Origin: Promethearchaeia archaeon | GTDB taxonomy: Archaea; Asgardarchaeota; Lokiarchaeia; Sigyniarchaeales; SOKP01 | Length of the DNA: 32,000 nucleotides | Direction: 5' to 3' | Assembly: GCA_046497275.1 (NCBI GenBank) | Contig: JAWOFX010000079.1 | Location: 1,842 to 33,841 of the forward strand | Part shown: one piece after another, positions 17,335 to 19,862 of the stretch | How positions within the stretch are numbered: position 1 is the first letter of the stretch | Layout of the letters: every line of letters starts with the position of its first letter | Position numbers and translations under genes: made by a program | Notes under the pieces: model-generated | The model's input: the letters and a program-made list of their open reading frames with translations, nothing else | Databases searched by the model: none | Told to the model about the DNA's origin: nothing

Positions 17335-17788
17335 TCTTATAACTCCGTAATTTTTAATTTTAAAAATTATTGAAAATTATTGATTAGAATTCTTAATATT
17401 TTACGCTTGATCAAATAAGTTCCTATTTAACCAAGAAAGTATTTTAATTATTTAGATTCTTAGCAAATAAATATTTTTCAATACAATTAATAATATTAAT
17501 TAAATTAGAATTTTCTCTGAAATTATTTTAAAAATGATTTAAAATAATATAAATTTCTTCACATGAAAGATTAAAGATTTTTAAATAACAAGAATAGATA
17601 TAATGGAAATAAATTTTTTAGTTCGCCTCTCCCAACAGTATTTTTTCCTTTATCTTACCTCAAATAAAATAGTGTATTTTTATCAATACTTAACCCCAAT
17701 ATAATTGAATTGTTCTCGTATTCATAGAATTAAGAAAATTTAGTGAGTGTTATTTTTAAATTTCAAAATTATATTAATAATCATAGAA

Positions 17789-18892
17789 ATGACTGAATTT
17801 CGAGTAAATAAATTTATTACTCTTAGATTAGAGGGAAAAGAAACAGTCATATATGTTAAGAAAGAGCGTTTTCGACAGTGCAAATATTTATTCTTAATTG
17901 ATCCAAGAAACACGGTCGATAACGATATTAATTCTATTGATGAAGCGGCGGAATCTTTTGAAAAGAAAATGGAGGGAGAGAATTTTACCTTGGATGAATT
18001 AGGACTTACTTCTGAGGATGTGTTTTGGGGACATTGCTCCAACCTCCAAGCGTGGGCGGAGAATGGGTATGATACACGGCTTATTCACTCTAATTTAGCA
18101 TTCCCGCTGCTGAGGGTGCTGGCAGAGAAAGGGGACCCGCAAGCGAGAAAAGTTTTTAAAGAAGAAATCGCGCGACGCTTCTTAGAAGGGTCAATAACTA
18201 CGAAAATTTTTCTTATGAATGAGGGTTTTCTTGATATCCTAACTATAGAAGAACTAGAAAGCATCATTCCGTCTAATATCATTTCTAAAATAAAATCTCT
18301 TAAGAATTTAATCGGAAAACGATTAAAAATGAAGAGTGACATAAGGGGAGTGGGACGAGAGTTAAATGCATACTCCTATGAGGAGGGTTATATCACAGGG
18401 ATGAAATTTAGCTGTAAGACATTGGACAAATTCCCCGAAATTTTGAGAAAATTTTCTGAGCTTAAGATGCTTGAGATGGCATTGAAAAAAATAGAAGTGA
18501 TTCCTGAATGGATTAATGAACTAAAGAAATTGAAAACGCTGAATTTAAGCTCTAATGCGATTAGAAAAATACCCGACTTGAGCCTGCCAGAGTTGGAAAC
18601 GCTTAGATTATCCTACAACCAACTGGAAACCATAGACTTTAGTGGGAGCGATTTGCCCATACTAATGGAACTATATCTAAGTGATAATAGAATACACACA
18701 ATTAAAGGATTAAAAAACCTAAAAAAACTTAAGATGCTAAGTATATGGCGAAATCAAATCAATGATCTTCCCAATGATTTATTGAAATTACCTAAATTAT
18801 TTGAAATAAGAATTAATAATTTAAATCCTATTAAAATTGACGAAGATAGTGTAGCTAAAGAATTAAAAAAAAAAGGAGTAGAGATTTATTAG
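17789..18892 (+). CDS. Leucine-rich repeat protein with a Lokiarchaeia-type N-terminal domain
   Basis: ATG at 17789 (MTEFRVNKFITLRLEGKETVIYV) is more plausible than the ORF-track start at 17747. Motifs FWGHCSNLQAW and LAFPLLRVL. C-terminal LxxLxLxxNxI repeats (LKTLNLSSNAI, LETLRLSYNQL, LMELYLSDNRI, LKMLSIWRNQI). Confidence 0.85.
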   Translation: MTEFRVNKFITLRLEGKETVIYVKKERFRQCKYLFLIDPRNTVDNDINSIDEAAESFEKKMEGENFTLDELGLTSEDVFWGHCSNLQAWAENGYDTRLIHSNLAFPLLRVLAEKGDPQARKVFKEEIARRFLEGSITTKIFLMNEGFLDILTIEELESIIPSNIISKIKSLKNLIGKRLKMKSDIRGVGRELNAYSYEEGYITGMKFSCKTLDKFPEILRKFSELKMLEMALKKIEVIPEWINELKKLKTLNLSSNAIRKIPDLSLPELETLRLSYNQLETIDFSGSDLPILMELYLSDNRIHTIKGLKNLKKLKMLSIWRNQINDLPNDLLKLPKLFEIRINNLNPIKIDEDSVAKELKKKGVEIY

Positions 18893-19141
18893 AAAATTAT
18901 TATTACAACGAAACTGATAGGTATGGATTTCCATCTTGACCAAGAGAAATTAGATAATTAATTTTTTTACTTGAATCTAATTGCTTTTTCTAAGAAATTA
19001 TAAAGTCAGTCAAAATACCTTTTAAAGTGAGTTGTTTTTCACTATTAATTTAAAATTTTTTATTGATATTTTTTATAATTCGTGAATTTAAAAAGTACTA
19101 TTTTTGGAGCATATTTTTTGGAGTGTTATTATAATGAAAAG

Positions 19142-19300
19142 GTGGCTCTCAGCCACAGAGACCTAAAGACAAGGTCAAAAATGAAATAGGGGGAGAAGAC
19201 AAATCATCTCAGCGTTAAGCCGAGACACTAAGTGTATACTCTACACTAACCAAAAGACAAAAATCCAGGGTGTGAACTGAGAGCCGTTTATATACGCCCT
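19142..19300. ncRNA. Candidate structured non-coding RNA / DNA element (orphan, family unassigned)
   Basis: About 44% GC (71/160 hand count over 19141-19300) within very AT-rich flanks. Five hairpins plus a long-range stem (19144-19157 with 19271-19285) and three copies of AAGACAA. No ORF. Confidence 0.55.
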
Positions 19301-19463
19301 ATTTATTTTTTTAAATTGGTATATCTATTTTATTAATATATGAAAATTTTTGCCTATCACTATTTTTATTAATATAATTATAAACTTGTTAGATATTTAT
19401 ATTTATTGAAAGATTATCTGGATTACCCTTTTTATAGAAATATATTACCTATTGACTAATAAA

Positions 19464-19862
19464 ATGAACGAATCGAATACAAAAAAAGAAGAAAAAGAAT
19501 TAAAAATTGATATTGGATGTGGTGTATTTATTATAATTGGATTTATCGCATCTTGGATTAATATGGTAATAATATATGATGCGCAGGGCACCAGTATTCA
19601 TCCCCAATTGAAAATATTCACGTATTTTACGATTATTTTCACGACGATTTTACCTACTGTTGGTATTGGGTTGATAAATAGGTTCTGGGGATATGCTTAT
19701 ATCTTGGGATTTGCGATGGCCGGTATTCCTTTTATCTTCATAGTTGATTTATTTATTGGGGCCTATACATTTGCCACTACAATGTTTATTTTTATTATTT
19801 TATGGATAATTTTTTGGAAAGCCTGGAGGAGCCTTAAGTCAATTAAGACAGTCCAAAACTGA
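19464..19862 (+). CDS. Hypothetical integral membrane protein (about 4 TM helices)
   Basis: Four hydrophobic stretches. ATG at 19464; the track start at 19452 is TTG. Confidence 0.8.
   Translation: MNESNTKKEEKELKIDIGCGVFIIIGFIASWINMVIIYDAQGTSIHPQLKIFTYFTIIFTTILPTVGIGLINRFWGYAYILGFAMAGIPFIFIVDLFIGAYTFATTMFIFIILWIIFWKAWRSLKSIKTVQN

Follow-up and report, generated by a model that had tools for sequence, protein, structure and literature searches.

The window, i.e., the whole stretch of DNA analyzed here (32,000 nt of contig JAWOFX010000079.1 from a Promethearchaeia archaeon, assembly GCA_046497275.1), contains an island whose GC content is 0.37–0.43 over positions 19100–19299, vs. 0.12–0.27 in its flanks. 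Just one open reading frame, a GTG frame of 35 aa (19082–19189), extends into the island. Upstream, a 381-aa leucine-rich-repeat (LRR) protein is encoded at 17747–18892 on the plus strand, with a local GC peak (0.47–0.55, in a genome of 30% GC) at 18000–18200. A direct repeat (ATTTTTGGAG/ATTTTTTGGAG) occupies 19103–19126, just outside the RNA described below; as minus-strand sequence it is CUCCAAAAA, present two times on the downstream side of the candidate U-tail (Table 1), and it gives a chance-level match to SmY (11.4 bits, E 9.1).

An earlier, sequence-only reading of this DNA had listed a set of stems within the island, and inspection of 18700–19800 found every one of them where it had been placed (Table 1). 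The island also folds better than its composition would predict on both strands, with minimum free energies of −44.7 kcal/mol on the plus strand (z −3.77) and −49.1 kcal/mol on the minus strand (z −3.29), each matched by 0/200 dinucleotide shuffles. Searches for known families returned little: with cmscan, no Rfam 15 model reached its gathering threshold anywhere in the window, and at E ≤ 10 within 18900–19500 there were only two chance matches, both of which fall outside the island; ARAGORN reported 0 tRNA or tmRNA genes in the window.

Table 1. Features of the island in window coordinates, with the evidence for each from the family alignments.
Feature	Position	Strand	Sequence or pairing	Evidence or remark
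H1	19142–19156		GTGGCT/AGCCAC	Peculiar to the window copy
H5	19267–19300			Peculiar to the window copy
Long-range stem (P1)	19144–19152 with 19277–19285; 19154–19157 with 19271–19274		GGCTCTCAG pairs with CTGAGAGCC; CACA pairs with TGTG	
P1, 5′ strand	19271–19285	−	GGCUCUCAG-uu-CACA, pairs with 19144–19157	13/13 pairs with double-sided changes, 90% of cells paired, 104 copies
P1, 3′ strand	19144–19157	−	UGUG-g-CUGAGAGCC	As for P1, 5′ strand
H2 (model helix 2)	19160–19176	−	GACCT/AGGTC	Family helix; 5/5 pairs with double-sided changes, 91% of cells paired
H3 (optional inserted hairpin)	19207–19225	−	TCTCAGC/GCCGAGA; one A·C on the plus strand is G·U on the minus strand	In some copies only (G000, G002, G012, G020, G033, and G008 types)
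H4 (model helix 3)	19231–19247	−	AGTGTA/TACACT; variant, e.g., AGCGUA/UACGCU	Family helix; 6/6 pairs with double-sided changes, 96% of cells paired
Invariant single-stranded linker	19249–19270	−	CCCUGGAUUUUUGUCUUUUGGU, contains GAUUUUUG (Pu-A-U5-G, Sm-site-like); plus strand ACCAAAAGACAAAAAUCCAGGG	
C/U-rich linker	19177–19206	−	GAUUUGUCUUCUCCCCCUAUUUCAUUUUUG; family consensus CGCCCUCCUCCCCCUAUUUUAUUUUU contains CCUCC	Alignments A2 and A3; purine-rich on the plus strand
A-rich outside box	19297–19312	−	AAAAAAAUAAAUAGGG, complementary to 19184–19191 and beyond	Upstream of P1 on the minus strand
Candidate 3′ end/U-tail	19137–19143	−	ACC-UUUU	Directly after P1

The island had been called an orphan, a description that did not survive comparison with related genomes. 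In blastn searches against 60 relatives, homologues appeared in all 36 same-family relatives searched; some matches were full-length (70–93% identity), and many were confined to the 3′ 25–45 nt (90–100% identity), with inspection showing the short ones to be complete copies whose other parts have diverged. Covariance model R1 identified three copies in the host genome itself (the window, C137:3376–3508, and C25:8585–8696); the match in the window spans 19141–19288 and scores 65.8 bits with R1 and 74.8 bits with the broader model R2. Across 151 sampled genomes of the phylum, R1 was positive in 25/25 genomes of the window's own GTDB family (1–6 copies each) and had no match in the 125 phylum genomes outside it. 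R2 was positive in 21/21 family genomes and also in genus g20 of the sister family, such that divergent copies are present in one sister-family genus (R2 plus a sensitive search of five genomes), and a complete 6.0-Mb sister-family genome (G055) carries four of them, including copies at C1:3151870–3151995 and C1:2498073–2498201. Overall, the elements measure ~105–155 nt and occur in 1–7 copies per genome.

When the GTDB species representatives were scanned for exact occurrences of the 20-mer ACCAAAAGACAAAAATCCAG, at least 119 contigs were returned, nearly all labelled Promethearchaeota or Asgard. Some record titles in that scan name Thor-, Odin-, Hermod-, and Hodarchaeota, as if the family were spread across the phylum, a reading we rejected because the R1 matches all fall in one GTDB family; given that confinement, the NCBI phylum labels are the names chosen by submitters. 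A literature search did not find a description of this RNA. It is a real, well-supported, and previously undescribed RNA family that is restricted to one Lokiarchaeia lineage.

Two further observations concern individual members. One lies at the very start of a 224,826-bp contig filed as viral (L148:33–136; IMGVR_UViG_3300029288_000001) and is genuine but weak (33.2 bits); possibly the contig is Asgard DNA that was filed wrongly, or else the RNA is carried by a virus or an integrated element of Asgard archaea. At some loci, two family members sit within 8 kb of each other (G055, at L161:1415–1490, L029, L083, L059, and L101), and in G055 a partial second copy follows the first directly and repeats its UUUUGUCUUUUUG tract, an arrangement that suggests tandem duplication.

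The strongest evidence that the family is a structured RNA comes from compensatory change. In an alignment of 104 copies (A5), 24/24 modelled pairs show double-sided changes, 91.9% of cells at paired positions form standard pairs, vs. 26–44% in controls with partners slid by 1–3 columns, and the covariation score is 0.475, vs. ≤0.067 for the slid controls, a value reached in 0/500 shuffles. This support is as strong as that of curated Rfam families. Because the same architecture recurs with compensatory base changes in >100 loci, the island lies beyond what chance would produce, and its designation as a candidate novel non-coding RNA is upheld by this very strong covariation among homologues together with the lack of any Rfam match (E ≤ 10) or tRNA within it.

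The family fold is a closing helix, P1, around two or three hairpins that are linked by two long conserved single strands. Support extends to P1 (10–14 bp with a small bulge), H2, and H4, and within these helices the sequence varies with covariation (for P1, GACUCCUGCC/GGCAGGAGUC, GUGAUUUACUCCU/AGGAGUAAAUCAC, and GUGCCCCGUGC/GCAUGGGGCAU; for H2, GACCU/AGGUC, GACGC/GCGUC, GGUCU/AGACC, and AACCU/AGGUU), whereas the linkers stay fixed. The suggestion that the window's island adopts two alternative folds needs revision: the long-range stem is conserved across the family, H1 and H5 are not, and the real additional pairing is between 19184–19191 and 19297–19304.

The first linker (19249–19270) is invariant over 20–22 nt in alignments A1–A4 (20 nt, 19249–19268, at the least), an invariance that is partly a product of selection, as most copies were found with its exact 20-mer; the divergent G055 copies retain UUUUGUCUUUUUGG within it. 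The second, C/U-rich linker contains a segment, CCCUAUUU, that pairs with a box lying outside the core. Specifically, CCTAT occurs 28–42 nt after the core in 36/122 copies, vs. 6/122 upstream flanks, and ~30% of copies, including that of the window, have CC(C)TATTT 14–25 nt beyond P1, complementary to AAATAGG(G) of the second linker. The mean match of box to linker within a copy is 3.28, vs. 2.28 with permuted flanks (reached in 0/200 permutations), and subfamilies differ in compensatory fashion, CCTATTTTGTTT occurring with AAACAAAATAGG and CCCTATATTA with TAATATAGGG. In the window, this helix can be drawn as the 8-nt pairing given above or as 14 bp with one bulge. Either the box belongs to the promoter, or it is transcribed as a leader whose pairing makes a pseudoknot-type helix.

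In G055 and in two further copies (L111 and L121), the C-run of the linker pairs with a local G-run instead of the outside box. The latter two (L111:5895–6047 and L121:6082–6233) carry a ~30-nt inserted hairpin in the G/C-rich linker (GGGGGA-UUCCCCAG...CUUGG-AGGGCG), and it is this insert that supplies the local partner for the C/G run. As the run is paired locally in G055 and in both hairpin-insert copies, the fold seems to want a helix at this place, whichever partner provides it.

The sequence-only reading implied a transcript from the plus strand, and the evidence favors the minus strand. When the helices are read as plus-strand RNA, A·C and C·A cells outnumber G·U and U·G cells by 95 to 38, with the excess in the same direction in P1, P2, and P4 and spread over many copies; since A·C cells on the plus strand are G·U wobbles on the minus strand, this asymmetry favors minus. 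The minus strand is also the more stable in 82/99 copies (by a mean of 3.95 kcal/mol), and H3 of the window is fully paired on the minus strand only. In both strong G055 copies, reading along the minus strand, a TATA box (TTTATATT or TTTATTAA) ends 21–22 nt short of the first base of P1; on the plus strand, neither copy has a promoter-like feature or a U-run. At the other end of the RNA, P1 is followed on the minus strand by a conserved ACC-UUU(U) (in 100 copies: A/U, C 72%, C 70%, Y, then U at ~75% in three positions), and terminator-like sites within 18900–19500 are found on the minus strand only, including 19156–19142 followed by CTTTTC. In the main family, no TATA box lies at a fixed distance from P1 on either strand; some copies have plausible TATA boxes 50–60 nt before the outside box, which must itself lie downstream of the transcription start if it pairs as RNA. 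Taken together, these data indicate that the RNA is most likely transcribed from the minus strand.

A plus-strand transcript of the same family would expose A/G-rich linkers (AAAUAGGGGGAGGAGGGCGAAAUCA and ACCAAAAGACAAAAAUCCAGGG), with a 3′ U-rich tail folding back on the A-rich linker, and could work by sponging up a protein, as an aptamer, or as a decoy that resembles a Shine-Dalgarno sequence. Folded RNAs typically have unpaired regions rich in purines and in A, AUGGUUUU or AUUUUUUU follows P1 and T5–T10 runs follow the outside box in this orientation, the box–linker helix gains or extends by G·U pairs, and the z-score of the island's fold is slightly better on this strand. Against these points stand the wobble asymmetry, the stability comparison, and the canonical TATA spacing on the minus strand of the G055 copies; moreover, TATA-like boxes lie immediately next to P1 on the plus side, such that a transcript from them would lose the 5′ strand of P1. 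We therefore regard transcription from the plus strand as unlikely.

Throughout the family, copies reside in intergenic DNA, and no ORF ≥100 aa overlaps any of 107 copies. Their neighbors, on either strand, are functionally unrelated and include LRR, cation efflux, CheB, radical SAM, PadR, and SIR2-TPR proteins; among 20 flanking proteins at 10 loci, there was no transposase, reverse transcriptase, or nuclease. The same radical-SAM neighbor stands beside the copies of two genera, g5 and g11, an arrangement that indicates vertical inheritance and speaks against mobility. Copies prefer divergent intergenic regions, and one third of them face a convergent gene on either strand reading, two features that favor independent transcription over a leader role. 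Like the window's copy, copy L021 adjoins an LRR protein gene. Small-ORF readings (GUG–UAA, and a 14-aa frame after the GGAGG tract) were rejected as not conserved between copies, and the same is true of the triple AAGACAA motif and the ACAGAGA-like string of the window, neither of which is conserved in the family.

Expression was examined in two salt-lake metatranscriptomes from one study, which contain parts of this DNA but are kept as contigs and hence show presence and not strand, ends, or level. Word depth is 310 in a 103-nt contig that comes from a relative's copy and differs in its P3 region; contigs from the window's flanks have depths of 2–20. One contig over 18916–19158 (depth 7.8) possibly reflects read-through, the neighbor's UTR, or DNA, and the variable part of the window's copy (19196–19229) is uncovered, which proves nothing. 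These data hint that family members are abundant RNAs and say nothing firm about the window's own copy. Separately, one contig of a G012-like copy in run X1 starts with an Illumina adapter fused just after the P1 strand (window 19156–19159); this junction, seen in a single contig of a relative, could correspond to a defined end of the RNA, located between P1 and the hairpin that follows.

The best explanation we can offer for these observations—one that we give about an even chance of being right—is a stand-alone small RNA gene on the minus strand, belonging to a lineage-restricted family, whose product acts as an Lsm/SmAP-bound trans-acting riboregulator or RNP scaffold. The RNA would measure ~145 nt from P1 to P1, and more if the A-rich leader is transcribed, and would run in the order P1, CCCUGGAUUUUUGUCUUUUGGU, hairpin, optional hairpin, C/U-rich linker, hairpin, P1, and ACC-UUUU. 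The paralogues of one genome might then be redundant “sibling” trans-acting riboregulators, or might together supply one RNP scaffold. An Lsm/SmAP ring could be bound via the U-rich linker and the U-tail, and the C-rich linker could pair with purine-rich sequences such as a Shine-Dalgarno-like GGAGG. The leader–linker helix, with its G-rich partner, would gate access to this C-rich arm, i.e., the second linker (CCUCC...CCCCC) would be either sequestered by a G-run (in a local hairpin or in the 5′ leader) or free.

In this proposal, we infer both the protein partner and the targets of the RNA. A U-rich tract between two helices, together with P1 followed by ACC-UUUU, has the layout of RNAs bound by Sm/Lsm/Hfq-type rings, and the genome encodes four LSM-domain proteins (C113:8322–8516, C85:6473–6688, C125:3020–3217, and C102:26133–26264). 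As for targets, the genes of the host genome show a G-rich, Shine-Dalgarno-like peak at −12 to −8 before their start codons. The C-run is paired in several lineages, however, and may for that reason be purely structural. The 20-nt invariant stretch, moreover, exceeds what an Lsm ring needs and counts against the Lsm reading.

A more specific possibility is that this is an abundant, multi-copy Lokiarchaeia RNA assembled on an Sm/Lsm ring via an internal AU5G Sm-type site, forming an snRNP-like particle that uses its C-rich arm on other RNAs. The Sm-site consensus is PuAU4–6GPu with stem-loops on either side, and U-rich RNA is what SmAPs bind (PMC3710371). The GAUUUUUG element fits the PuAU4–6G portion of this consensus and is predicted to be single-stranded between helices, though in the window the tract between P1 and the next hairpin, GAUUUUUGU, ends in U rather than in the consensus purine. 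The Sm-like tract of G055 reads UAUUUUGU, and the copies of that genome keep AU4G...CU5GG. Counting against an Sm-type site, U-rich tracts are common in a genome of 30% GC. We consider such a particle rather unlikely.

Ribosomal RNA was considered and rejected as a target of the invariant linker (23S and the 5′ part of 16S, in G030): 1/4 tests beat 30/30 shuffles, at −24.7 kcal/mol near 16S positions 702–731, and the duplex is rich in G·U pairs, contains a 7-nt bulge, and is not convincing. The archaeal SSU rRNA model matches over positions 4–828 only in two genomes (G000:C106:3345–4170, L150; G030:C2:450044–450885, L155), and such partial matches could reflect an intervening sequence or an assembly break; SSU rRNA is fragmented in G006, and LSU rRNA was not found in G000, G006, and G028.

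If the element were instead a cis-acting leader (a riboswitch or attenuator) or the 3′ terminator structure of an adjacent gene, a consistent relationship to a neighbor would be its mark. The next gene downstream runs in the direction of the RNA in 54/87 cases if the minus strand is read and in 60/88 if the plus strand is, the stem with its trailing U-run looks like a terminator, and the box–linker helix could act as a switch. Yet some of the convergent genes faced by one third of copies are only 34–90 nt away, co-directional genes usually lie 100–400 nt off and have unrelated functions, and the co-directional bias is equally explained by the preference for divergent intergenic regions, all of which makes a cis-acting role very unlikely. 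Still less probable, in our judgment, is a new self-cleaving, catalytic, or ligand-binding RNA with the invariant linkers as its core. While variable covarying helices around strictly conserved junctions, in multiple copies, are typical of small ribozymes and aptamers, and the adapter junction described above falls between P1 and the next hairpin, no Rfam ribozyme or riboswitch model matched at E ≤ 10, the linkers are long, low-complexity, and U- or C-rich, unlike known catalytic cores, and the junction comes from one relative's contig.

Conserved boxes of guide RNAs were sought by inspection of alignments A2–A4, and no C (RUGAUGA), D (CUGA), or ACA box is conserved on either strand; with the helices, and not guide segments, as the variable parts, a C/D-box or H/ACA guide RNA was rejected.

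A miniature inverted-repeat or other DNA-level mobile element, with the P1 arms as terminal inverted repeats, is hardly tenable. In its favor are the multiple copies, the inverted repeats that form the terminal arms, the position of some copies at contig ends, and the one copy on the IMG/VR contig (L148); but the arms vary by compensatory changes around a conserved interior, the reverse of what is expected of repeats recognized by a transposase, copies number only 1–7 per genome, orthologous positions are retained across genera, and the asymmetry between G·U and A·C indicates selection on an RNA strand. As to the idea that the island is a non-autonomous IS110-type bridge (seek) RNA or a remnant thereof, with loops guiding a recombinase encoded elsewhere, the resemblance is loose (multiple stem-loops and unpaired segments in a non-coding island, several copies per genome) and the probability negligible, as the 98.9%-complete genome has no match to PF01548 (DEDD_Tnp_IS110) or PF02371 (Transposase_20) in searches that detected the positive controls, no transposase lies beside any copy examined, the unpaired segments are the most conserved parts of the family and invariant across genera rather than matched to individual targets or donors, synteny is kept across genera, and Rfam gives no match. 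The IS110 link is thereby removed as a false lead.

To our knowledge, almost nothing is known of Asgard non-coding RNAs beyond the universal ones. The family described here is ready for RNA family databases at once, and, for the archaeal lineage nearest to eukaryotes, it offers a concrete candidate for the RNA that Lsm/SmAP proteins bind. Should the complete sister-family genome come from a cultured strain, its divergent copies could be open to experiment. Were the Sm/Lsm-ring reading true, the prokaryotes most closely related to eukaryotes would possess an snRNP-like particle.

Among known systems, the IS110/IS1111 bridge RNAs share with the family only the general format of a ~150-nt non-coding RNA with several stem-loops. 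The family RNA differs in that it is not at the end of an element, shows no evident insertion signatures, and has loops that are invariant and not programmable. The Hgc RNAs, reportedly described by Klein, Misulovin and Eddy in 2002 as non-coding RNAs in GC-rich islands of AT-rich archaea, are similar in how they come to notice, i.e., as a GC-rich structured island without an ORF in an AT-rich genome; the family RNA, however, matches no HgcC/E/F/G, H/ACA, or C/D model in Rfam. Sm-class snRNAs are a looser likeness: GAUUUUUG on the minus strand is single-stranded between two helices, in an Asgard host with its own LSM-domain proteins, but the family lacks the 3′ purine of the consensus and any similarity to Rfam snRNA models. 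With a range of a single Lokiarchaeia family and one additional genus, the family is not ancestral to eukaryotes.

Closer in layout are the bacterial Hfq/Lsm-dependent “sibling” small RNAs, e.g., Qrr1–5, and the Lsm/SmAP-associated archaeal small RNAs. Like these, the family has several paralogous stand-alone genes in one genome with an identical single-stranded stretch in common; each gene is intergenic with its own promoter region, and its RNA has a U-rich internal tract beside helices and a terminal stem that a U-run follows. The family differs from them in its closing 5′–3′ helix of 10–14 bp and in an invariant U-rich stretch of 20–22 nt, and it has no sequence homology to them, such that the likeness is one of layout alone. 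With that qualification, and with no homology implied in either case, the nearest analogues of the family would appear to be the Hfq/Lsm-dependent sibling small RNAs and, more loosely, the Sm-class snRNAs.
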